Below, in pieces: positions 38,061 to 64,000 of a stretch of 64,000 nucleotides of DNA. Numbering within the stretch: the first letter of the stretch is position 1; each line of letters starts with the position of its first letter. Origin of the DNA: an uncultured Azospirillum sp. (GTDB lineage Bacteria; Pseudomonadota; Alphaproteobacteria; RF32; CAG-239); NCBI GenBank assembly GCA_902489795.1, contig CABUBU010000004.1, forward strand, positions 817 to 64,816, read 5' to 3'. Position numbers and translations under genes: made by a program. A model generated the notes under the pieces. It ran no database searches. It had not been told where the DNA came from and saw only the letters and a list, made by a program, of their open reading frames with translations.

Positions 38061-38621
38061 TCAATCGGCTTTCGCTAATGCTTCTTTTTTCGCAAACCAG
38101 CGGTCGGACTTCTCCTTTGTGTTCACCGACCACAGCCAGACAAAACGTTCGGCAAACGCCGCCACCGCCAACCGGTCACTAAGAAAAATACAATTCTCAC
38201 TGTTTTTGACGGTAGCCGGTTCCGTCCAGTTATAGCTCCCCGTCACCGCCGTTCGTCCGTCAAATACCGCAAATTTGTTGTGCTCAATCTTATGTTTCGA
38301 GTGCACCCGGATATTAACCCCGGCCCGGTAAAGCTCCCACACCTTGGAACTTCTGCCGGCCGCCTGCAAACGGTCGGTCAGGATCCGCACTTTCACCCCG
38401 CGGCGGTCAGCCTCTTTCAAAGCCTCCACAATATCCACATTGTTCAGCGAATAGACGGCAACGTCAATTTTCCGGCGGCTGCCGTTGATCATCTTAACAA
38501 TGCTTTCCTCACAGGCATTTGAGGGCGAAAAATACACCTCAACACTCCCGGCCGGCTGAAAGCCCGCCGCCAGCACCGCCCCACAGAGAAAAACACAAAT
38601 AAGAATTGACAGCTTTCGCAT
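38061..38621 (-). CDS. secreted PLD-superfamily endonuclease (Nuc of pKM101-like)
   Basis: Signal peptide MRKLSILICVFLCGAVLAAG. Single HKD motif HNKFAVFDGRTAVTGSYNWT. ~185 aa mature size and KNSEN motif as in periplasmic Nuc. ATG at 38621. Confidence 0.75.
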   Translation of the reverse strand: MRKLSILICVFLCGAVLAAGFQPAGSVEVYFSPSNACEESIVKMINGSRRKIDVAVYSLNNVDIVEALKEADRRGVKVRILTDRLQAAGRSSKVWELYRAGVNIRVHSKHKIEHNKFAVFDGRTAVTGSYNWTEPATVKNSENCIFLSDRLAVAAFAERFVWLWSVNTKEKSDRWFAKKEALAKAD

Positions 38622-38725
38622 AATACAACCTTTCGATTGTATTTTTACACAAATAATACTTCTCGTCAACAACAAAGGGCTGCATTTTTACAAATACAGC
38701 CCTTTTGAATTGCAAACAATAATTA

Positions 38726-39382
38726 TCAGACAATCAAATTACTTTTTTTTAACCTCTCCTCCAATTCTAACATCAAATTTGTCCCGAAAAAGGCACGCCA
38801 GCTTCTCATCTTTTCAATAACTTGCGCTTCTTCTTCCGACAACTGATAATCCTTTCGGCTCCGGTTTTCTTCATCCAAAACCTTACGAACAGCATTTTTA
38901 TATATAGAACCAAAACTGTCTTCGCCGGCAGGCTTTATAGTTTTCCTGCCAACCGCCTTAACTTTACAGCCGGCCATTTCTTCACGAACAGCCACCGCTA
39001 CGCACTTCTTGACCATTTCACCAATCGCTTCCATGTCAACAGTTACCATTTTGGAAATAGTTCCATAACCTCCTGTCTTGCGAATTGAGGGAAGCACTTC
39101 ATGAGTAACCCATCTCTTAAACCTTTTGGCTTCCTGTTTACGGGAATCCAATGTAATATTATATAATCCAAATTCATTAACGATATTAGCCTTTCCCTGA
39201 CGACCTATTTTTAACATAGACCGCTCATCATCATCTAATTTTTGAACAGCCTGAGTTGTGTTTTTTATTTCTAAAACTTTACAAACATCACAGGCAACAA
39301 ACCAAGGCTCTCCGTCTAACAAAATTGTTCTTATTTGATTTTTGTTGAAATTAAAAACTGAAATTTCGGCACTGTTACTCAT
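38726..39382 (-). CDS. Bro-N domain protein (phage antirepressor-like)
   Basis: ISVFNFNKNQIRTILLDGEPWFVACDVCKVLEI ... NEFGLYNITLDSRKQEAKRFKRWVTHEVLPSIRKTGGY is a classic Bro-N pattern. ATG at 39382. Confidence 0.75.
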   Translation of the reverse strand: MSNSAEISVFNFNKNQIRTILLDGEPWFVACDVCKVLEIKNTTQAVQKLDDDERSMLKIGRQGKANIVNEFGLYNITLDSRKQEAKRFKRWVTHEVLPSIRKTGGYGTISKMVTVDMEAIGEMVKKCVAVAVREEMAGCKVKAVGRKTIKPAGEDSFGSIYKNAVRKVLDEENRSRKDYQLSEEEAQVIEKMRSWRAFFGTNLMLELEERLKKSNLIV

Positions 39383-39494
39383 GGTGACTGCCCTCCAACA
39401 GTTCAACCACTTCCTTCAATTTGGCCAGCACAAAATTCAAGGTGCTTTTCAGCGCCTCGTTTTCAACTTCCAACTCTTTATTTGATTTTTCCAT
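39375..39494 (-). CDS. 39-aa coiled-coil peptide
   Basis: Hand-translated MEKSNKELEVENEALKSTLNFVLAKLKEVVELLEGSHHE. The stop overlaps the Bro-N start. Confidence 0.3.
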   Translation of the reverse strand: MEKSNKELEVENEALKSTLNFVLAKLKEVVELLEGSHHE

Positions 39495-40305: not shown

Positions 40306-43300
40306 TTATTCATCCTCAAAGTCCCGCAAGGCATACGGCGACCAGCCGAGCCACAGCATAATTTCCTTGCCCGGTTCTCCGGCTTTGGCATAATCGCCGA
40401 AATTGTTGACAACGTCCTGCACATATTTCAGCGGCAGCCCCGTCAATTCACCCAAGGTCTTAACCGCTTTCAGCACATCTTCCGCTTCCAAATCCTCATC
40501 GGCAAATTTCAATACCATATTTTTAAAGTCTTCCAAACTTCCCCAAAACGGCACCAATTCCCGCACCGACATTCTGGCTTGATACATTCCGCCCTGGCCG
40601 GTCAGTGTATTATAAACATTTTCCAACACTTTATTTATAAGGAACCATCCGTTTAATGATCCCAGCGCGGCCGCCCTCATCTGGCTGTCGTCATCCCAGC
40701 GAAAACTGTCAGCGACAAACTGGAAAAACATCGGCAACAAAAAATGATAGATAAACAGCATTTTCGCAACCTGTTTTTTGCTCATCCGTCCGCTCAACAA
40801 TCCGTTAACAGCCATTATTTCTTTGCGTAGATACTGGTTTTGCGAACTCGTAAACATTGTAAACGCCCGCCACATCGCGTTGCTTTGCATATAGCTCTGC
40901 TGGCTCAGGCGGCCGGATTGCTGCGTTTCGTCCGTCACCCTCTCAAATGTATCCAAGGCCTTTTGCTTTGCCTCAGTTTCACTCATCCCCGCTTTCAGGT
41001 TCTTTTTCAGTTCCGATTTATAAAGCGCCCAACCGCCCATATAAATCGCACCACGGTCACCAAACTTAATATTAGCCATCAAAAAATCATTCCATTTGAA
41101 TTTACCTTTGGCTTTTTTCATATTCTTAAACATTTCCGATTTTGACATCACTTCAAAATCGCGAATAATATTGACATCCCGGCTTTTCATCAGGGTTGTG
41201 TTGCCCAAAATCTCCATAGCTTCCTTGGGATGAAGGAAGAAATCGGCAACGCCTTTGATAAAATCAGTTGTCGATACATTCTCCCAATAAGCCGGAAATG
41301 ATGTTAATTGCTTAATGGCCAGCGCCGGCTTCAAACCCAGCACGGATTTGGCATACCGCGCCCGCACCTTGGACAAAGCGCTCCAAACATCTTTCTTTTC
41401 CCCGTTGTTGGCAAAGTTCCCAATCTCATAGCGGATTCTCTCATTCATCTTTGCGCCGAAAACATTATCGATAATCGCCTTGATCTTTTTATCGCCAAAA
41501 ACGGCGTTAATATCCAGCAAGGCATCGGCAAACCCCATATAATGGTTAAGATCCTGCACATATTTATGCAAAGCGGCAAAGGCTCCTCGAAAGTTGATGG
41601 TTGCGCTGCCAGCCTGCGCCACACGCTGCTTGGCGCCCGAAAAGCTGGCATAAGCTCTTGGTGTTCCGTCATCAACATTCACACCGTTTCTGGTCATCGA
41701 GCGCGGCGAGTAAAACTTATTATGTGTCAGGCTGATGCCAAAATGATCTTCATAAAATTGGTTAAACCGCTCATAGTTTTCATTATAGAACTCAAACAAA
41801 GCCTTTGCTACCGCAATATCATCCTCCGTCAGTTCCTCATTCACCCGCCGCAAAAACTCCTCGTTATACTGGTTGATCGGATCTGCTGCCATAATTTCCC
41901 GAGTATCTTTGTCTTGTGCTTTCATATAAACATCAATTAACTGATCTTTGCTGAACTCCTTGCGCATCAAAATCGGCCTAACCGGAAGTCCGCGCTTGCC
42001 GATGTTCTCGTTACCAACCCATTCGATCATTGTTTTCTGATCAAGTTCTTTGTCCATATAACGGCTAACGCTGATAGCCTTGTTGGCGCTTCCTTTTAAT
42101 GCGTTCATCAGCTTTTCCGAAACATTGTCGCCATCTTTGATAATCCCGGCATACATTTTCTGCTCGGCGTTGAATATGTCCATATTCTGGCTGAGCTTGC
42201 TGTTGGAGCTTTTAGAAGCTTTATCGTTTCGCGACAAAACATCCATCAGCCCGCCCCACGAAAGCTGTCCACGTTCCGCACCTCCAAGCATTTTCCACGC
42301 CTTGTCTTTCCAGCCTTTTTTCTCATCCCGCCAGTTAATTCGGCCGCCGCCGGTCAAAACTTCTTCGGCTTCGGCAATCAGTCGCGCTTTTCTCTCCTTT
42401 CTGATTTCTCCGGTTATCATTGCGGACAAACGACCTGCATTGTAGCTGTCAGACAACCCTTCATAAACTTCCAAAAGCGCCCGGTCGCTTATTTTTCCGG
42501 TTGCCAGACCCAGCAGTTTGTTTTCAAAGACAAGCTTTTCAACATCAATATCGCCGCCTTCGCGCATAAATTCTTCAATCAGTTTGGCGTTTTCCTGCTG
42601 CTGTTCTTTGGCCGCATCCTTGTCCATCGCCACCAGTTCACGGAAACGGTCAAAAGCGTCGTTCAATTTTTTGTCCGGGAAACGTCCGACCAACTTGCCG
42701 TTTTGCGTCCGCGGCTTTGTCCAAGTCAAAAGTCTCTCTATCCTTGAGCGCATATTTTCTCGGTCAAAAACCAGATTTTCAAGCTGACGGCGATACAAAT
42801 TATAATCATATTCACTCAATTTCTCTTTGTTAATATTTGGCGATACAGCAAAATCTTTCAGCTTTTGCTTAAAATCCACAGCGCTGACTTCATTGCTTTT
42901 CATTTGCTCAATCAGGCTTTGCATTTCCGCCTTGCTGATTTTGCCTTCATGCAGCAGTTCCATCGCTTTATTAATGTCCCAGTTAGAAATAAAACCGCGT
43001 TGCAGGCGGTTTTCCATATTTACTGTACTCTGCTGCATGGCAAAATCAATTTTTCTGCCGCCCAGCATATCATCAAAGGTTTTGCGAATCTCATCATCTA
43101 ATTTAACATACTCCAAGCGTTTAACTTCATTATAAAGATTACGCAGCCAACTCTTAAAACGACGAAACACTTTTTTCAAAAGCGCATTAGGCGAACGCCC
43201 TTCCAGCAAATAAGCTTCAAAGGAATCGGCAAAATACTCATGCTGCTCTCTTGTCAGATTTCCATCCGTTGAACCGACATAACGATATATTGCCTGCAAC

Positions 43301-46300
43301 TGTGCCGCCGTTTCCGGGTTATCGGCAAAACGCCGCATATCGTCCAAAAAGAAATGCCCCAACTCATGAACGACGGTTGAGGCATCGGCGGTTTGAAAAA
43401 GTTTTATAATTGCTTCCCCGGTATCCGGTCGCCGGGTAAAACTCCCTCGCGGATTATCTTCTCCCTGCCCCCGCACCGGCGTAACCTCAAGGTTCAGCTC
43501 TCCGTCACTCGGCATTCCCAACTGATAAAACTTGTCAATTACCTGTATATCGTCAGGATTAAAGATCACAAAACACCGTCCGTCTTGCTCTCCGACATAG
43601 GTTATGCCTTTAATTCCATATTTTTCCAGTAACTGAGAGGAGGCTTTGTCCGAGCCTAAAATATTTGATATTTTCCGATAAACATCTCGACCGGTTATTT
43701 TTTGTAAACTAGAACCAGCGGCAAATTTTGCCGTAAAACCATACTTTTCAACAATTTTTTCTTCCAGATTTTTTAGCTTTTCTTTCACAAAATCGCTTTG
43801 TTCACTGAAAGTTTTTTGTTCATCAAGCAAATACGGATTTTCAGGTATATCAACCTCGTGCACTTGCCCCTTAGGTAATTTCGACAAATCAGAATCTTTA
43901 ATTTCCTGAATAGCCTTTTTAACATTTTCACTGTTATATCTGTAATCAAGATTAGAGAAGAAATCCTTTGTTGCTTGATTTTCGCTGATTATATCGGAAT
44001 ATAATGCTGGGTATTCCTCTATCTTATTTTCAATTTCATCGATTTGTTTTATTTTTTCTTTTTTCTCCTGTCTAATTTTATCCAGCTCTGCATCAGCGCC
44101 TTCCTTTTTGTATCCCCATTCATCATAATAGCTATCACTTTTTTTATCTAAATTTCTTATTTCGTCTTGAATAGCATAAATTTCAGAATAGAGATTTGTA
44201 CGTTCCTTTTGAATGTCTAATATGTTATTCAGCTTTTTTATAAAAAAGTCTTTTCCCTTTTCATTAACAGCCAAAAGTCTCATATATTCACCATTAGACA
44301 TGTCTGCCGGTTTCGATTCTGCTATGAATTTCTTACGATAATGTTCTGCAACATCTTTATCCAAAGCATAATAAAGCCCCCAGCCGTGCGACTGCGCTCC
44401 TTCACCAGTACCGATTGCCTCCAAACTCGGCCGGTCATAATCAACACGGCTGCCGGCATACGCTATCTGATACAAAGTATCATTGACATTGCCCGCATTT
44501 TGTGTTACATTATCATTATAAGCGGTTTCCGCTTTAAGGCTCTCCGAGAGCCCGCCTTGTACGGCGGTGTCTATGGAGGTACTAAGCCCCTTATCCCCCG
44601 GATTTGTAGCCGGATCGGTGCGAGGGGCTTTTTCATTTACCTGTGCATCCCAAAAGAAATTGCCGTTGTTGTCTTCCTTAACCGTTAAATGGACATTATA
44701 AGTATCATTGTCAATGTTTATCGGCAAATCAGCCTTCCAATAAGCGACAATATTACTTTCCGTTTCCGGGGTATAGGTATTTTCACTGACAAAATTTGCC
44801 CTTTCCAACAATTCGGGAACATAAGGAACGATCAACCTTTTGTTTTTGTCGGCAAAAAAGCTCTTATATTTTTTGATTGACGAAGTCCTGATTTCAATCT
44901 CACCGTTTAAGGACTGATTAAAAATTTTCTTCCCTTTGAACGACTTTAAGATTTCCAGCATCTTGAGCTTGTAATCATCTTCGGAAAGCCCACCCATCTC
45001 TTCCCGAGAATCAATAGTCAGTTTTACATCGTTCCCATTAGCAACAACCTGCCCTTGATAATAAATGTTGTCGGACGCCGGATCAAACGTCCCGCGGTTA
45101 TAAACGGATTTTATCTGGTTGGGATTAAAGACGATATAGTCGGTTGAACGAACATTTGATATATCAACAGTATCATTCACATCTTTTATGATAACTCCAT
45201 CATATCCATTCCTTTTGGCGTATTCTGCCCATTCCTCTGTCGAACGTGCTTTTTCTCCTTTTACTTTGGCAAGATTAACATACCCCTCCGGATCTTCTTT
45301 TGCGTTTTCTGTATAATATTCTTTCGCCTCTTCAAAACTATCGAAACCAAGTGTCACCAAATATTTTATATCATCATCAGTCAATTCGGAATATTTCTTT
45401 TTGTTACCTTCCGCATTATATATTTTTTCGAAAGACTGCCCATAGGCGTCAATGACAAGAGGATTCCTCATCAACAGATAGACCTGCATAGGATTTTTAG
45501 AACCATAAGCACCCGCTACATCAATGCTATCCGAAAAGAAGTAACGCTTTCCCTTAAAAACATCAAACTCCGCGCTCGTCCCATGAAACCCCTCAACCAC
45601 AACAGGTTTTCCGGTCTGAAAATCATAATTTCGGGCGGCCGAAGGTGCAACAACATCAACGCTGCCGCTCCACCGCTTAAATTCCGGCGTGTCAATATCC
45701 GCTTTGCCATCAACACCGTATGCTTTTTGAGGTAATTGATACAAAGTATCGTTGACATTATTGTCCAGAACTGATATAATATCAGACATACTCCGACTAG
45801 AGAGCAGTCCCTTTTGGGTAGTGGATGCCGTTTGCATCGCTCTAGCGGAGTTATTTTTTATCCAGTTGTCAATATTAGCGTCCGTATCTTTAAAAGCCGT
45901 TGTAACAATATTGCGCCCGCTTTTCATATGCTCAAAAACAACGCCGTACTTTCCATTGGGAGTAGCCACTTTCATCAATACAGATTGTCCATCAAATCTT
46001 TTTTTGGAGGAAAGTGCCGCGCTTTCAATATTATCTATATTTGAAGCGACTTCTGTCCATTCTTTAGCTGTCAACGAGTGTTTTTTATCGTGTAAAACCG
46101 TATCTCGAGGAATATCAAAATTAACCCCACTGTTTGATAAATTGGCAAAATATCTTGCGCTTGTATCTTCTGGATTGTTAAAAATATCATTAACAAAATT
46201 CTCTAAAGTATCAAACTTACTTTTATACATTGACTGTTCAAAGTTTCCGTTTCCTTCTCTTTCTGCCAGATAAACGGCGCTTCCTTGTTCGCCGTCTTCA

Positions 46301-48228
46301 ATACGCAACTGCCAGCGCTCCAAAATATCCGCTGCCGATTTTCCTTCGTTGACTGCCAACGTTACCGCTCGCGCCGCAATAATTCTAGCGTCTGCATCCG
46401 CTTCCGCATTTGGACGTCCTGCCGCCGTCAGCTGCTCGTAAAAGTTTTGATAAACTTCGTTATACTGGTTTCTGGCATCAATCATCGGCGCAACAATCTT
46501 AACCCATTGGTCAATTTGTTCGTCCGTCACACCAAAACGCTCTTTCATCACCTGCCGGCTCACCTCTGAGATACTCCGGGCATCTATTCCTTCCGGCATC
46601 GTGTCCGGATCTTTTTCCTTGTTCAAGAGCTGATTCAGTTCATCCATGACCGGCACGCTTTCCTGCAAAAACGTTTCCTGCAGCAAATCTGCCGTTGTTT
46701 GCGCCGTCTGATCGTCAATGCCCGGGTTATAAGCTTTCACCTGGTCTTTTATCTGCCGGTTCCAGTTTCTCATACGATGGTTGTAAAGCATAGTGCCGCC
46801 CGCGCCAAAGCCTGCACCCGTAATACCCCCAACAAAACCAGAAAACATCCCGTCCGCCCAGATATCCGCCTGCGACTTATCCTGCCAGCCGATGGCATTT
46901 CGGTATTCGTCCCCCAGCACGTTCTGTACGGTTTCCTCAAACGGCCCTTCAGTCAAAAAACCTTTTGCCGCTGCCTTAAAAACCGAGGACTGGCGGGCTA
47001 CGTTTTTAACCGCTGTTTTAACCGGCGCCGCCACCGCTCGGTTGTTCAGGATTTTTTCAACCGATCCGACAAAGGCGTTTTTCAATACCTTGGAAGCCGG
47101 AGCCGTTCCCACTTTGGCAATCCCCATCATAATGAAATCGCCGATTCCTTCCAAAGCTCCGTCAAAAGCTCCCAGAATGTCAGAATGCAGATCCGCCGTG
47201 TCAAAATCCTCTCCTTGTGCCATTGCCTCTTGAAAAGCTTCGCTTTTGGACGAATCAAAATAAGCTTTGCTGATCATACCGGCCGCTACATACGGATTTT
47301 TAGTTGCCAGCGTTATCGCCATGGAAGCTGCGATAGACGTCGCGCTATTGCCGATCCCATACATAACGTTCTGAAAATCTTTTTTGCCGCGCATTTCCTC
47401 GGGCATCAGCCCCAAACTGATTTTGTTGATAGTTTCAACGTTATGCTGCCGCCATTTGTCATACAAAGCCACCGCTTTTTGGTTCAACTCCTGCGCATTT
47501 TTCTGCGCGGCATTGAGCGCTTTGTCAGACACCGGTTGATCAAACCTGCCGCCATACATCAGAGAAACCGGGTTTTCCGCCATTTCCCGAGATACCCGGC
47601 TTTCTCTGGTTTCTCTCATTTCATCGGCAATATAAGTCGCTTCGCCGGCTGCCCTTCCGGCTTCGACCACATCATCGGGCAAAAAAAGCTCCGCTAAGCC
47701 CAAACGCGGCATCGATGAGGATGCCTCGTTTTTCCCTTTTTCGGCTCTCTCCTTCATTCGAAAATAATCAAACAACAGATCCGTTTCCCCTCTGGCAATG
47801 CTCCCGGCAATGTCCAGCGCTCCGGCCGCGGCAGATTTCGGCGCCTGTTTAGCCTCACCAACCGTTTCTCTTGCTTTTTCTTTGGCATAATCAAGCGCCA
47901 ACTGCCCGCCAAACAACAAAATTTTACCCAAGAAATTATCTTTGTTTATCTTTTCTGCCTGCGTATGGATGGCAAAGCGGGTGTCGGTTTCATCCATCGT
48001 TGCCGGCACCGAATAAACTTTGTTGGTGTCCGCATCCAGCGTTGTATAACTGGGAATATTGACCGGCACCCATTCGATTACTTCATCATCAACAACTTCT
48101 TCTTCAGCAACAGGAATATTAACCGGCACCCATTCGATTACTTCATCATCAACAACGTTGGTTGACCGTTCACTTCCGCGCAAAACCGCCAATTCATTGT
48201 CAATATTCTGTATCAATTCCTCATCCAT
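40306..48228 (-). CDS. giant (2640 aa) internal-virion/ejection protein at the T7 gp16 position; polyvalent multi-domain protein
   Basis: Follows the gp13/14/15-like genes. Contains FHGTSAEFDVFKGKRYFFSDSIDVAGAY...GYDGVII...VFNPNQIKS (ART-like), IGTGEGAQSHGWGLYYA (second, H-less copy), VLHDKKHSLTAKEW...VVFEHMKSGRNIVTTAF (barnase/EndoU-type nuclease-like), and VVHELGHFF...EYFADSFEAYLLEG (HExxH zincin). Confidence 0.75.
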   Translation of the reverse strand: MDEELIQNIDNELAVLRGSERSTNVVDDEVIEWVPVNIPVAEEEVVDDEVIEWVPVNIPSYTTLDADTNKVYSVPATMDETDTRFAIHTQAEKINKDNFLGKILLFGGQLALDYAKEKARETVGEAKQAPKSAAAGALDIAGSIARGETDLLFDYFRMKERAEKGKNEASSSMPRLGLAELFLPDDVVEAGRAAGEATYIADEMRETRESRVSREMAENPVSLMYGGRFDQPVSDKALNAAQKNAQELNQKAVALYDKWRQHNVETINKISLGLMPEEMRGKKDFQNVMYGIGNSATSIAASMAITLATKNPYVAAGMISKAYFDSSKSEAFQEAMAQGEDFDTADLHSDILGAFDGALEGIGDFIMMGIAKVGTAPASKVLKNAFVGSVEKILNNRAVAAPVKTAVKNVARQSSVFKAAAKGFLTEGPFEETVQNVLGDEYRNAIGWQDKSQADIWADGMFSGFVGGITGAGFGAGGTMLYNHRMRNWNRQIKDQVKAYNPGIDDQTAQTTADLLQETFLQESVPVMDELNQLLNKEKDPDTMPEGIDARSISEVSRQVMKERFGVTDEQIDQWVKIVAPMIDARNQYNEVYQNFYEQLTAAGRPNAEADADARIIAARAVTLAVNEGKSAADILERWQLRIEDGEQGSAVYLAEREGNGNFEQSMYKSKFDTLENFVNDIFNNPEDTSARYFANLSNSGVNFDIPRDTVLHDKKHSLTAKEWTEVASNIDNIESAALSSKKRFDGQSVLMKVATPNGKYGVVFEHMKSGRNIVTTAFKDTDANIDNWIKNNSARAMQTASTTQKGLLSSRSMSDIISVLDNNVNDTLYQLPQKAYGVDGKADIDTPEFKRWSGSVDVVAPSAARNYDFQTGKPVVVEGFHGTSAEFDVFKGKRYFFSDSIDVAGAYGSKNPMQVYLLMRNPLVIDAYGQSFEKIYNAEGNKKKYSELTDDDIKYLVTLGFDSFEEAKEYYTENAKEDPEGYVNLAKVKGEKARSTEEWAEYAKRNGYDGVIIKDVNDTVDISNVRSTDYIVFNPNQIKSVYNRGTFDPASDNIYYQGQVVANGNDVKLTIDSREEMGGLSEDDYKLKMLEILKSFKGKKIFNQSLNGEIEIRTSSIKKYKSFFADKNKRLIVPYVPELLERANFVSENTYTPETESNIVAYWKADLPINIDNDTYNVHLTVKEDNNGNFFWDAQVNEKAPRTDPATNPGDKGLSTSIDTAVQGGLSESLKAETAYNDNVTQNAGNVNDTLYQIAYAGSRVDYDRPSLEAIGTGEGAQSHGWGLYYALDKDVAEHYRKKFIAESKPADMSNGEYMRLLAVNEKGKDFFIKKLNNILDIQKERTNLYSEIYAIQDEIRNLDKKSDSYYDEWGYKKEGADAELDKIRQEKKEKIKQIDEIENKIEEYPALYSDIISENQATKDFFSNLDYRYNSENVKKAIQEIKDSDLSKLPKGQVHEVDIPENPYLLDEQKTFSEQSDFVKEKLKNLEEKIVEKYGFTAKFAAGSSLQKITGRDVYRKISNILGSDKASSQLLEKYGIKGITYVGEQDGRCFVIFNPDDIQVIDKFYQLGMPSDGELNLEVTPVRGQGEDNPRGSFTRRPDTGEAIIKLFQTADASTVVHELGHFFLDDMRRFADNPETAAQLQAIYRYVGSTDGNLTREQHEYFADSFEAYLLEGRSPNALLKKVFRRFKSWLRNLYNEVKRLEYVKLDDEIRKTFDDMLGGRKIDFAMQQSTVNMENRLQRGFISNWDINKAMELLHEGKISKAEMQSLIEQMKSNEVSAVDFKQKLKDFAVSPNINKEKLSEYDYNLYRRQLENLVFDRENMRSRIERLLTWTKPRTQNGKLVGRFPDKKLNDAFDRFRELVAMDKDAAKEQQQENAKLIEEFMREGGDIDVEKLVFENKLLGLATGKISDRALLEVYEGLSDSYNAGRLSAMITGEIRKERKARLIAEAEEVLTGGGRINWRDEKKGWKDKAWKMLGGAERGQLSWGGLMDVLSRNDKASKSSNSKLSQNMDIFNAEQKMYAGIIKDGDNVSEKLMNALKGSANKAISVSRYMDKELDQKTMIEWVGNENIGKRGLPVRPILMRKEFSKDQLIDVYMKAQDKDTREIMAADPINQYNEEFLRRVNEELTEDDIAVAKALFEFYNENYERFNQFYEDHFGISLTHNKFYSPRSMTRNGVNVDDGTPRAYASFSGAKQRVAQAGSATINFRGAFAALHKYVQDLNHYMGFADALLDINAVFGDKKIKAIIDNVFGAKMNERIRYEIGNFANNGEKKDVWSALSKVRARYAKSVLGLKPALAIKQLTSFPAYWENVSTTDFIKGVADFFLHPKEAMEILGNTTLMKSRDVNIIRDFEVMSKSEMFKNMKKAKGKFKWNDFLMANIKFGDRGAIYMGGWALYKSELKKNLKAGMSETEAKQKALDTFERVTDETQQSGRLSQQSYMQSNAMWRAFTMFTSSQNQYLRKEIMAVNGLLSGRMSKKQVAKMLFIYHFLLPMFFQFVADSFRWDDDSQMRAAALGSLNGWFLINKVLENVYNTLTGQGGMYQARMSVRELVPFWGSLEDFKNMVLKFADEDLEAEDVLKAVKTLGELTGLPLKYVQDVVNNFGDYAKAGEPGKEIMLWLGWSPYALRDFEDE
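48055..48156 (-). repeat. in-frame tandem duplication near the 5' end of the giant gene
   Basis: AATATT(G/A)ACCGGCACCCATTCGATTACTTCATCATCAACAAC occurs twice, 60 nt apart, encoding VVDDEVIEWVPVNIP twice. Confidence 0.85.
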
Positions 48229-62383: not shown

Positions 62384-62423
62384 CATAGAAAAACCCCGGA
62401 AAGCTTAAGCTTTTCCGGGGTTT
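62384..62423 (-). terminator. strong intrinsic terminator upstream of terS
   Basis: Minus strand AAACCCCGGAAAAGC-ttaa-GCTTTTCCGGGGTTT followed by TTCTAT. Confidence 0.65.
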
Positions 62424-62483: not shown

Positions 62484-62638
62484 GCTCCGGTAAGGATTTG
62501 CACCTTACATAACAGTCCACTCCCCTCCTCAATCGAGCCTTGACAAATCAGCTATTTCACTGTGTCATTGTCAGGTGGTATCGAACCACTAGAACCGCCT
62601 TATCTGCTGTTAGCGTCTACCTATTCCGCCACGGAAGC
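62484..62638 (-). ncRNA. 155-nt tRNA-like RNA (class II tRNA-type acceptor/D/T arms with ~90-nt insert replacing the anticodon loop)
   Basis: Features:
- 5' GCTTCCG pairs with 3' CCGGAGC (6 of 7 pairs including one G-U)
- TGGCGGAATAGGTAGACGC is nearly identical to the E. coli tRNA-Leu D-arm
- TAACAG/CTGTTA 6-bp stem encloses an insert that itself carries a canonical T-arm GTGG-TTCGATA-CCAC
- 3' T-arm TAAGG-TGCAAAT-CCTTA
- followed by TTTTGTTTTTTT. Confidence 0.45.
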
Positions 62639-62725
62639 AAAGTCTAATAACAAGCTCTCGCTTTTTTAACTTTTAGTCTTCGTTTTTTAAGAAACAATCT
62701 GAACCCATTTGTTCATCATATAAAA

Positions 62726-62755
62726 ATTATAGCGCAAAACCGCAAAAAATGTCCA
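62726..62755 (-). promoter_or_regulatory. sigma70-like promoter directing transcription towards the tRNA-like RNA and terS
   Basis: Minus strand TGGACA (62755-62750), 18 nt, TATAAT (62731-62726). Confidence 0.45.
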
Positions 62756-62820: not shown

Positions 62821-62849
62821 TTGACATGTCACCAAAAGTGACATATAAT
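62821..62849 (+). promoter_or_regulatory. perfect-consensus sigma70 promoter with an inverted repeat in the spacer (operator)
   Basis: TTGACA (62821-62826), 17-nt spacer TGTCACcaaaaGTGACA (perfect 6-bp inverted repeat), TATAAT (62844-62849). Confidence 0.7.
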
Positions 62850-62906
62850 AACTTTATAAAAGGAAGCCAAAGGGGCAAGCCTTCTATTTCTAAAAGGGAA
62901 ATCAAA

Positions 62907-63251
62907 ATGAAAAAATTCAATATCAAAAAAGCCACGTCTGAACAGCTTCGCAGCAAACTTCGCAAAATCATCCATCTTGGAAACGGTGATATGAAATATT
63001 TTGAAATCGCCGAGAAATTGAATGATTTCGCAAATAAAATTCATCGTGAACTGGATCGGCGTAATCGGGCTGCTATTTATAAAAAAGCATGCCAGGTTTT
63101 GAAAAACAGGACCTTTCCAAACCAATTCGCTGCCGCGGCACACTATGCCGACACTGTTATCAACAGCTCTGATTATTTCGACACTGAGGATAATCACGAA
63201 ATCAACGGCTTATACACTAAATCAGGACACCCTGAAATCGTTTATTTTTAA
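62907..63251 (+). CDS. orphan small protein (114 aa), first gene of the early-type operon; anti-defence candidate
   Basis: ATG at 62907 after AAAGGGAAA, ~58 nt downstream of the -10. AT-rich. No family recognised. Confidence 0.55.
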   Translation: MKKFNIKKATSEQLRSKLRKIIHLGNGDMKYFEIAEKLNDFANKIHRELDRRNRAAIYKKACQVLKNRTFPNQFAAAAHYADTVINSSDYFDTEDNHEINGLYTKSGHPEIVYF

Positions 63252-63271
63252 AAATTCTAAAGGGGACAAAT

Positions 63272-63562
63272 ATGAAAAAACAATTATGCACTACGATTGC
63301 AGACAAGGGGTGCGTTTGTATGAACGGAATTTGCTTTTCGTGTGACGGCGACGGCTGGAAAACTGTCATTTTAACAGACGAGATTGAGCGAAATCCCAGC
63401 AGACCTTGGATTGATCTGCGTGAAAGCGAGTTATTTATCTGGCGAAGCGACTGCGACCCCGGAATTGTTTATAAATTTGACGAGAAAGAATTAGAGACAT
63501 GGGCGGTCGAGATATTCTGCGATCCTGCAAATGATATAATTTACTTGATTAAATTTGATTAA
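63272..63562 (+). CDS. orphan small protein (96 aa) with an N-terminal Cys cluster including a CxxCxGxG (DnaJ-type zinc-finger-like) motif; anti-defence candidate
   Basis: CTTIADKGCVCMNGICFSCDGDGW. AAAGGGGA RBS upstream. Confidence 0.55.
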   Translation: MKKQLCTTIADKGCVCMNGICFSCDGDGWKTVILTDEIERNPSRPWIDLRESELFIWRSDCDPGIVYKFDEKELETWAVEIFCDPANDIIYLIKFD

Positions 63563-63579
63563 TTTTTTAAAAAGTTAAA

Positions 63580-64000
63580 ATGACAAAAAAAGGTTTTTTA
63601 ACAGCCGAAGAATACAAAACCATCCGCCAAACCCTCGGCTTTTCGCAGGCCGAGGCGGCGGCTTTCCATAAACTGCAAAACATCCGCACAGTCAAAAGAT
63701 GGGAGAACGGCGACAGTTTTGTGTCAGAACTGGCTTGTAACAAAATCACCCGGTTGTTCGAACTTATCAAAGCACAGATCAAATCAGCCGTTGAAAAAAT
63801 CATCCAAACGCCGAGAGATACGGAGATTGTTCTTGTTGTTTATCCCGAAGGTTGCCGCGACCTGATACCGGGACTTGGTGACCTGCCAATGTCTGTGCAT
63901 AACGCCATGATCCGCCGGGTTTATATTGCCGCCAGAGAACTCGGCCAAGACGTCGGAATTGTGACTTTCAACCCGCAATCGTATTTTTCTTTTCTTGCGG
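63580..64000 (+). CDS. Aca2/YdiL-like HTH protein (HTH + DUF1870), 3' end beyond the window
   Basis: Hand-translated MTKKGFLTAEEYKTIRQTLGFSQAEAAAFHKLQNIRTVKRWENGDSFVSELACNKITRLFELIKAQIKSAVEKI...VVYPEG...SVHNAMIRRVYIAARELG. It parallels E. coli YdiL (ELQALRHIFAMTIDECATWI...SWRQWENGKCAIPDRVVEQLL...HLHAIIEKI...RVYPDG...YQSVAAELYAHDLE). There is no stop before position 64000. Confidence 0.6.
   Translation, partial: MTKKGFLTAEEYKTIRQTLGFSQAEAAAFHKLQNIRTVKRWENGDSFVSELACNKITRLFELIKAQIKSAVEKIIQTPRDTEIVLVVYPEGCRDLIPGLGDLPMSVHNAMIRRVYIAARELGQDVGIVTFNPQSYFSFLA

Follow-up and report, generated by a model that had tools for sequence, protein, structure and literature searches.

The terminal part of the 64,000-nt stretch of DNA analysed in this work (hereinafter the window; contig CABUBU010000004.1 of the uncultured Azospirillum sp. 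assembly GCA_902489795.1) carries a compact plus-strand locus of three open reading frames (ORFs), starting with a promoter at position 62,821. This locus is probably a self-contained accessory operon (a 'moron') of a temperate prophage, governed by an Aca2-like autorepressor and bearing exchangeable cargo whose most likely role is in anti-defence or host takeover. Two small genes, ORF1 (62907..63251, plus strand; 114 aa, basic, isoelectric point [pI] 9.5; the commonest cargo family of these operons) and ORF2 (63272..63562, plus strand; 96 aa, acidic, pI 4.4; an inserted extra cargo gene), precede ORF3 (63580..64000, plus strand), which codes for a helix-turn-helix (HTH) regulator of the DUF4447/SO3848 family, a long Aca2-like form, that is very probably the autorepressor of its own operon; the gaps between the genes are 20 nt (ORF1-ORF2) and 17 nt (ORF2-ORF3). 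What sets this Aca2-like operon apart is a regulator from the uncharacterised DUF4447 branch, together with operator and leader motifs of its own. A sequence-only reading of this DNA had likened the layout to characterised anti-CRISPR (acr)–anti-CRISPR-associated (aca) loci, and the likeness holds: the inverted repeat IR1 of the ZF40 acrIF8-aca2 locus has the same placement, and across related loci the regulator is conserved while the small genes are swapped.

The window contains the first 140 of the 164 codons of ORF3; the gene extends 75 nt past the window end, and the full 164-aa protein was taken from identical contigs (L001:10309-10803; related loci are hereinafter designated by such L numbers). 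Its earlier assignment to the Aca2/YdiL (DUF1870) family survives at the level of the structural superfamily, with the HTH scoring above the Pfam threshold in a hidden Markov model search, but not at that of the family, which over the full length is DUF4447/SO3848. The Pfam DUF4447 profile (PF14590) scores 41.1 bits against a cut-off of 27.2 and aligns residues 1-158 of ORF3 with positions 1-165 of its 166, whereas Aca2_YdiL (PF08965) passes marginally (24.2-24.6 bits vs a cut-off of 23.8), covering residues 9-76 and profile positions 3-71 of 118. The DUF4447 hit is present on all close relatives of ORF3; their Aca2_YdiL scores range from 23.3 to 25.2 bits, and some score higher on Aca2_YdiL than on DUF4447. 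Similarly, a profile of 16 ORF3 homologues matched the structure of SO3848 (PDB: 2OX6; E 5.5e-14, query 1-158 on chain 1-165), and the same profile matched the Aca2 chains (8W35, 7VJO, 7B5J, 7EZY) and YdiL (1S4K) in the N-terminal 55-75 residues only (E 0.004-0.07). In profile-profile alignments with hhalign, ZF40 Aca2 was aligned over 53 HTH columns (probability 90.5) and ORF78 of the Pasteurella phage Pm86 over 138 columns (probability 98.7). The HTH of Pm86 ORF78 (148 aa) is itself 47% identical to that of ZF40 Aca2, and as judged from these alignments the Pm86 protein bridges the DUF4447 and Aca2 families. ORF3 departs from the full-length Aca2 architecture (~116-120 aa with a compact C-terminal dimerisation domain) in that its C-terminal half matches DUF4447. 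The VYP(D/E)G segment, previously taken as a mark of Aca2, proved instead to be a DUF4447 feature (VVYPTQ in SO3848) that is gapped in the alignment with ZF40 Aca2. By sequence and profile comparison, ORF3 belongs to DUF4447, a family that is sister to Aca2 in a shared structural superfamily, and is not a canonical Aca2. SO3848 has been described as a two-domain structural homologue of Aca2 in which the strands are longer, a helix is inserted, and two further helices follow at the C-terminus; no function is known for it, and it was proposed to be an autorepressor (Usher et al., 2021; PMC8434428). DUF4447 is named in the literature we searched only in an unrelated context, with no mention of PF14590, and a pattern scan of GTDB representative genomes found no DUF4447 relatives. 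ORF3 in the window has no obvious Shine-Dalgarno sequence, and L013 has AAGGA at the same position. We also observed a solitary DUF4447 gene, 51% identical, between gpW and the portal gene of a lambda-like prophage (L010, 3880-4507; GCA_951801185.1); it lies on the strand of the structural genes, has a TTGACT box upstream without a TGTCAC-type repeat or the leader motif described below, and has a divergent recognition helix, SVNTIKRW.

The promoter of the operon (62821..62849, plus strand) is of the sigma-70 type and, as first noted from the sequence, matches the consensus at 12 of 12 positions: TTGACA (62821-62826), a 17-nt spacer, and TATAAT (62844-62849), with a predicted transcription start at ~62856. 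Exact TTGACA-17-TATAAT is expected ~0.02 times in 64 kb and was observed twice (62821 and 45752). The 17-nt spacer consists exactly of the inverted repeat TGTCAC-caaaa-GTGACA (62827..62843, no strand), whose arms lengthen to 7 nt once the flanking bases are counted (ATGTCAC/GTGACAT). The repeat had been read as positioned for repression; it is the predicted operator for an ORF3 dimer. Even with one mismatch allowed, it is the sole match to TGTCAC-N5-GTGACA in the window (0.05 expected); there is one occurrence per related locus, and in both the 64-kb window and the 20-kb L002 it stands solely at the operon's own promoter. Across all related loci that could be fetched, a -35 box followed by a 6+5+6 repeat in or overlapping the spacer and the -10 was found in every compared locus except L010 and L015-L018, and L009, L013, L019, L023, L109, L117, L127, L128, and Pm86 preserve the -35 box and, at the 17-nt spacing, a -10-like hexamer. 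The repeats themselves vary: TGTCAC/GTGACA arms occur in the window, in L128, and in L009 (with a centre that is the reverse complement of that in the window and a shift of 2 nt), CGTCAC/GTGACA in L109, TGTCAC/GTGTCA in L127, perfect TGTCAT/ATGACA in L117, perfect TGTCGT/ACGACA in L023, TGTCAT/ACGACA in L019, TGTTAC/GTATCA in L013, and TGTTCT-N6-AGAACA in Pm86. Three of the arm variants are perfectly symmetric (TGTCAC/GTGACA, TGTCAT/ATGACA, and TGTCGT/ACGACA), so that a change in one arm is mirrored in the other, which fits the requirement of a dimer site. The operator variants moreover track the predicted recognition helix of the regulator: N(I/V)RT(V/I)KRW pairs with CAC arms, NLRTIQRW with CGT or CAT arms, GVLTIKRW with the TGTTAC of L013, and TQRSWAYW with the TGTTCT of Pm86. 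Mere decay of the L013 operator was considered and set aside, as its recognition helix differs too, with an R-to-L change between the window (NIRT) and L013 (GVLT). The prediction that ORF3 binds the TGTCAC-N5-GTGACA repeat is well supported by this comparison.

Downstream of the promoter, in the interval from the predicted start site to the start codon of ORF1, lies a block of 22-24 nt (AAGG[A/T]AGCCAAAGGGGCAAGCCTT, 62860-62883) that is invariant in most relatives, even in those with a different operator and different genes. It corresponds to the first of two predicted RNA hairpins (62860..62883, plus strand), with a 4-bp outer stem (AAGG/CCTT), an internal loop (AA and AAG), a 3-bp inner stem (GCC/GGC), and an AAAGG apical loop; the second (62886..62902, plus strand) pairs AUUUCU with GGAAAU around an AAAAG loop and contains the Shine-Dalgarno sequence of ORF1. 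When each leader was folded separately to its minimum-energy structure, 10 of 11 gave the identical two-hairpin architecture, the first hairpin with an A-rich internal loop, an inner stem of 3-4 bp, and an AAAGG apical loop (AAGGG in Pm86), and the second with an AAAGG-like loop and enclosing the ribosome-binding site. The inner stem GCC/GGC is compensated to GUC/GAC in the close relative L128, to CGUC/GAUG in L127, and to GGC/GCC in Pm86, where the outer stem also changes from AAGG/CCUU to GAGC/GCUC; the pairs of hairpin 2 survive one-sided as well as two-sided changes. Unguided RNAalifold returned the same two-hairpin consensus, with double changes in 5 of 12 pairs, a count that understates the pairing because MAFFT misaligns the two most divergent leaders, whose shared architecture is seen in the per-sequence folds. 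A covariance model built from the leaders hits each operon exactly once and gives no other hit in 158 kb, nor does it match the ZF40 leader; no Rfam family matches the leader either. Scans with 17-mers and 19-mers of the leader recovered no true member in IMG/VR and three in JGI metagenomes (L109, L117, and L110, the last being the window's own phage), the rest of the hits being chance. The Aca2 dimer binds two hairpins within its transcript's 5′ untranslated region (UTR) and thereby blocks translation (Feussner et al., 2026; PMC13551039). The two-hairpin leader described here resembles these bound hairpins and differs from them in sequence; that ORF3 might bind RNA is a conjecture by analogy.

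The genes that precede the regulator turn over extensively. At least seven unrelated small proteins, or none, precede DUF4447 genes in the window, L009, L010, L013, L109, L126, L127, and Pm86: the ORF1 family; ORF2; a 66-aa protein in L009, a very common gut prophage; a 107-aa protein in L127; one of at least 82 aa in L126; a 76-aa protein in Pm86; a 104-aa protein together with an ORF1 relative in L109; and nothing in the lambda-like phage of L010. Cargo proteins had no match in Pfam, PHROGs, or PDB sequences, and ORF1, ORF2, and five other cargo proteins had none in NCBIfam either; no validated Acr was found upstream of ORF3. Downstream of the regulator, we observed a HicA/HicB pair directly after the DUF4447 gene in L023 (3960-4596) and an added 78-aa gene in L019. 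The discovery of acr genes started from this signature of a conserved regulator whose small partners are exchangeable, and such partners argue against an obligate two-gene system.

This bears on the alternative that the locus is a toxin-antitoxin (TA) or addiction/abortive-infection module, in which a toxin of a new fold would be encoded by ORF1, with the DUF4447 protein as its HTH antitoxin, repressing the shared promoter via the repeat, and ORF2 as a passenger. ORF1-family genes do stand directly before the DUF4447 gene as a rule, 10-12 nt ahead of it in at least four phage backbones; the promoter contains a palindrome; HicAB directly adjoins the cassette in L023; and a table listing phage genes that were screened for overexpression toxicity includes a mycobacteriophage protein with a DUF4447 annotation (PMC7474061). 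The best NCBIfam match of ORF3 is also to the HTH of the MqsA family (TIGR03830; E ~1e-5, HTH only), but at 25.4 bits it falls far below the cut-off of 61.8. The supposed partners are, however, separable in both directions. The ORF1 relatives of L015-L018 are followed by an unrelated gene of 125 aa, and both the repeat and the leader are missing there (the possibility that this gene is a diverged DUF4447 was rejected, with an hhalign probability of 0.2); DUF4447 genes, for their part, are found alone or beside five other small, unrelated proteins (e.g., L009, L010, L126, and L127, all without ORF1). In the window itself ORF2 is inserted between the would-be toxin and antitoxin, ORF1 has no counterpart among toxin families or folds, and PADLOC returned nothing significant. 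Taken with the exchange of partners, these observations make a TA module quite unlikely.

Both small genes were described at the outset as AT-rich orphans. The composition is as claimed, with G+C contents of 38.8% (ORF1) and 41.2% (ORF2) against 48.1% in the rest of the prophage and 51.4% in the host flank; orphan status applies nearly to ORF2, with one other cluster, but not to ORF1, which belongs to a family of ~50 clusters. That family comprises 28 close clusters at 49-100% identity, and an exhaustive profile search of 1.84 billion proteins yielded 52 representative clusters; two long 'fusions' from this search were discarded as low-complexity artefacts. A longer, TTG-started ORF1 from 62790 was likewise rejected, since it begins upstream of the promoter and the homologues all start at MKKF. 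The family is strongly conserved in its C-terminal half (...NQFAAAAHYAD...) and variable in its N-terminal half. The AlphaFold2 model of ORF1 is confident (predicted local distance difference test [pLDDT] 90.9), with four helices and a small β-hairpin, and shows no fold relative in Foldseek searches against PDB and BFVD (none at E<0.001, none below E 0.1; best TM-scores 0.36-0.39). A tblastn search of 50,697 GenBank phages with ORF1 gave no match, and neither ORF1 nor ORF2 had a Pfam, PHROG, NCBIfam, PADLOC, or PDB sequence match beyond sub-threshold noise.

For ORF2, structure prediction was less productive: the model is weak (pLDDT 63), and the Foldseek search made with it returned nothing and is uninformative. 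The CxxCxGxG cysteine cluster ascribed to it is present as C21-F-S-C24-D-G-D-G. Of its cysteines (C14, C16, C21, and C24 in this region), C16, C21, and C24, along with C61, are retained in its one relative, a cluster at 53% identity found in an unrelated run of small phage genes; these four residues form a probable zinc site. A copy of ORF2 also occurs in L128, and L013 and L019 lack it; among these operons ORF2 is restricted to the lineage of the window and L128, and it is read as a recent insertion. The junctions before ORF2 (63245-63270) and before ORF3 (63564-63589) have in common a stretch containing TTTTTAAAAA, with 73% identity across 26 nt, and may be the seams of this insertion.

The genomic setting is that of an integrated temperate prophage. 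Positions 1 to ~31,000 of the window are bacterial chromosome, coding for an AcrB-type pump, a thiamine pyrophosphate enzyme, DsbD, ApbE, and an Rnf subunit, with the AcrB being 97% identical to that of the metagenome-assembled genome 'Azospirillum sp. 51_20', an uncultured human-gut alphaproteobacterium; no CRISPR array was found in these 31 kb of host DNA. The remainder is prophage, with a T7-type portal, a large terminase (Terminase_3), a P22 gp3-type small terminase, and a 2639-aa polyvalent protein encoded on the minus strand. Near-identical metagenome contigs that reach beyond the window end show minus-strand replication genes 3′ of ORF3 (coding for a DnaA_C-domain protein and a 442-aa protein), then a divergent cI/Cro-like HTH_3 pair, and then small early genes and a methylase. 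The cassette thus forms an island on the plus strand, flanked on one side by the first of the late (packaging) genes and on the other by the last of the early (replication) genes, both modules being encoded on the other strand. The sequence-only reading had instead seen a T7-order genome with this operon in the first-expressed region; as the element is a prophage lying beside host genes, with a cI/Cro-like pair and the cassette between its packaging and replication modules, it is no T7-order lytic genome and the argument from the position of Ocr does not apply.

This neighbourhood could also suggest that ORF3 is a general phage regulator, acting for instance on late or packaging genes, with the small genes as ordinary regulatory or assembly accessories: the DUF4447 gene adjoins the small terminase gene in the window, L009, L013, and L109, and lies between gpW and portal in L010. 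The predicted operator and the leader motif each occur once per locus, for which reason a regulator of late genes at large is unlikely; moreover, the cassette is transcribed away from the terminase genes, and its cargo is not conserved among phages that share structural genes. We accordingly rate this alternative as highly improbable.

More weight attaches to lysogenic conversion, in which the cargo would serve the lysogen, through superinfection exclusion, defence against other phages, or a change in host physiology, and would be held at a steady low level by the autorepressor. The element is an integrated prophage, its intermodule position resembles that of classical morons (with HicAB at the same spot in L023), its host-type promoter is independent of the phage's own circuits, and an autorepressed operon is expressed at a constant low level in the lysogenic state, as ZF40 lysogens have shown for Aca2 (PMC6765145). 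Against this, none of 5,027 PADLOC defence models was matched, most defence effectors are unlike these small, soluble, single-domain proteins, and the combination of a 12/12 promoter, a spacer-filling operator, and a translational leader is the described pattern of anti-defence operons that give a burst and then shut off. Although sequence alone does not separate lysogenic conversion from anti-defence, we regard the former as unlikely.

Returning to the Aca-type autoregulated operon, we propose that host RNA polymerase would fire the consensus promoter once phage DNA enters the cell, giving a single mRNA for ORF1, ORF2, and ORF3. As ORF3 accumulates, its dimer would bind the spacer repeat via the HTH domains and exclude the polymerase, lowering expression to a level that would persist in the lysogen. 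The two-hairpin leader probably adds translational control of ORF1, as it can hide the ribosome-binding site and would so reinforce shut-off. The genes ahead of the repressor would be exchangeable cargo and, by analogy with acr-aca loci, most likely early-acting anti-defence or host-takeover proteins. An anti-CRISPR or anti-defence function for ORF1 and ORF2 is suggested by architecture only, i.e., by guilt by association: that the cargo is anti-defence may well be true, at slightly short of even chances, and that it is specifically anti-CRISPR seems unlikely. A fuller version, which we advance tentatively and consider doubtful, would have DUF4447 as an undescribed Aca family with a spacer DNA operator and a two-hairpin RNA leader, whose AAAGG loops would each be read by one subunit of the dimer, and ORF1 as a new anti-defence family with a new fold, widespread in prophages of uncultured human-gut bacteria.

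Several observations weigh against the Aca-type interpretation. On the regulatory side, the correlation between operator and recognition helix spans ~4 lineages and could be explained by shared ancestry; the folding energy of the window's own leader is no different from that of shuffled sequence (z = -0.2), which leaves hairpin 2 in the window with weak thermodynamic support; the RNAalifold covariation term is small; the minimum-energy fold of the L128 leader is a structure other than the two hairpins; and the leader has no operator half-site, unlike the ZF40 IR2. As for the cargo, no protein resembles a known Acr or anti-defence protein by sequence, solved structures included; the pairing of ORF1 with DUF4447 is more faithful than that of typical acr-aca pairs; and the C-terminal half of ORF1 is highly conserved, unlike many fast-evolving Acrs. 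Finally, the presence of HicAB next to the cassette in L023 means that the intermodule site also collects TA or defence cargo.

New anti-CRISPR and anti-defence genes are found by association chiefly through Aca-type regulators. If DUF4447 acts as an Aca, it could serve as a new key for searching phages of uncultured gut bacteria for anti-defence cargo, and would provide at least seven candidate proteins, including the ORF1 family with its confident model and no detectable fold relative, as well as a second independent case in which to ask whether HTH repressors of this fold also read RNA hairpins. Should the cargo turn out to be toxins or lysogen functions, the locus would still be a compact, portable, autoregulated expression cassette.

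Other features of the prophage are recorded here as separate observations. The 2639-aa protein (40306-48228, minus strand) combines ART-PolyVal (ADP-ribosyltransferase) and LPD3 domains; it is likely another anti-host factor, of a kind thought to be injected with the DNA. The second exact TTGACA-17-TATAAT (45752-45780, plus strand) lies antisense within its gene, with the -10 inside the palindrome TGATATAATATCA. Near the left end of the prophage (38061-39406, minus strand) are genes for a PLD-like nuclease-family protein (203 aa, PLDc_2) and a Bro-N protein, which are possibly additional cargo of an accessory or defence-related kind. Upstream of the small terminase gene, between a minus-strand promoter-like TGGACA-18-TATAAT (11/12; 62726-62755) and a perfect 17+17-nt palindromic terminator-like hairpin (62390-62423), we found a tRNA-Leu-like fragment (62570-62639, minus strand) with a D-arm GTGGCGGAATAGGTAGACGC and a T-arm GTGGTTCGATACCAC and no matching acceptor stem; ARAGORN made no call on it and it matched no Rfam family. 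The fragment is identical in the close relatives L006 and L007, which hence offer no covariation information, and may represent either a ~330-nt phage non-coding RNA or the relic of a tRNA.

Set against known systems, the locus shares with toxin-first type II TA modules (MqsRA, HicAB) the order of a small gene followed by an HTH repressor, a palindrome in the promoter, and a weak HTH similarity to MqsA; it differs from them in having no toxin-family match, in the separable and exchangeable partners, and in an MqsA score far below the cut-off. SO3848 of Shewanella oneidensis (2OX6, PF14590) is a full-length relative of ORF3 in the same length class, and its gene, too, follows a small gene with a promoter repeat (Usher et al., 2021; PMC8434428); however, it is chromosomal with no recognisable prophage, its upstream gene is SMI1/KNR4-like, and it offers a fold but no function. 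Closer in context is the ORF79-ORF78 pair of the Pasteurella phage Pm86 (MH238467; both annotated as hypothetical), a 76-aa gene followed by that for the 148-aa full-length relative of ORF3, with TTGATT, then TGTTCT-N6-AGAACA overlapping CATAAT, and a two-hairpin leader with compensated stems. Pm86 ORF78 differs in its 29% identity, other half-site, gammaproteobacterial host, and an HTH nearer to canonical Aca2. The ZF40 acrIF8-aca2 locus is distinguished by its 116-aa Aca2 (vs the 164 aa of ORF3, whose C-terminal half follows DUF4447/SO3848 with extra helices), by the operator TTCG-N6-CGAA in place of TGTCAC-N5-GTGACA, by a leader unlike that of the window with its two AAAGG-loop hairpins, and by a validated Acr upstream of the regulator, which the window lacks. 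In organisation the two nonetheless agree closely: in the ZF40 promoter (TTGCTT-GTTCGCGATTGCGAACA-TATAAT) the 17-nt spacer is filled by IR1, placed as in the window and experimentally a high-affinity Aca2 site that blocks the -35/-10 (PMC6765145), and both loci reside in prophages and combine such a strong, repeat-filled promoter with a structured 5′ leader before the first gene, one or more small genes first, and a homologous HTH autorepressor last.

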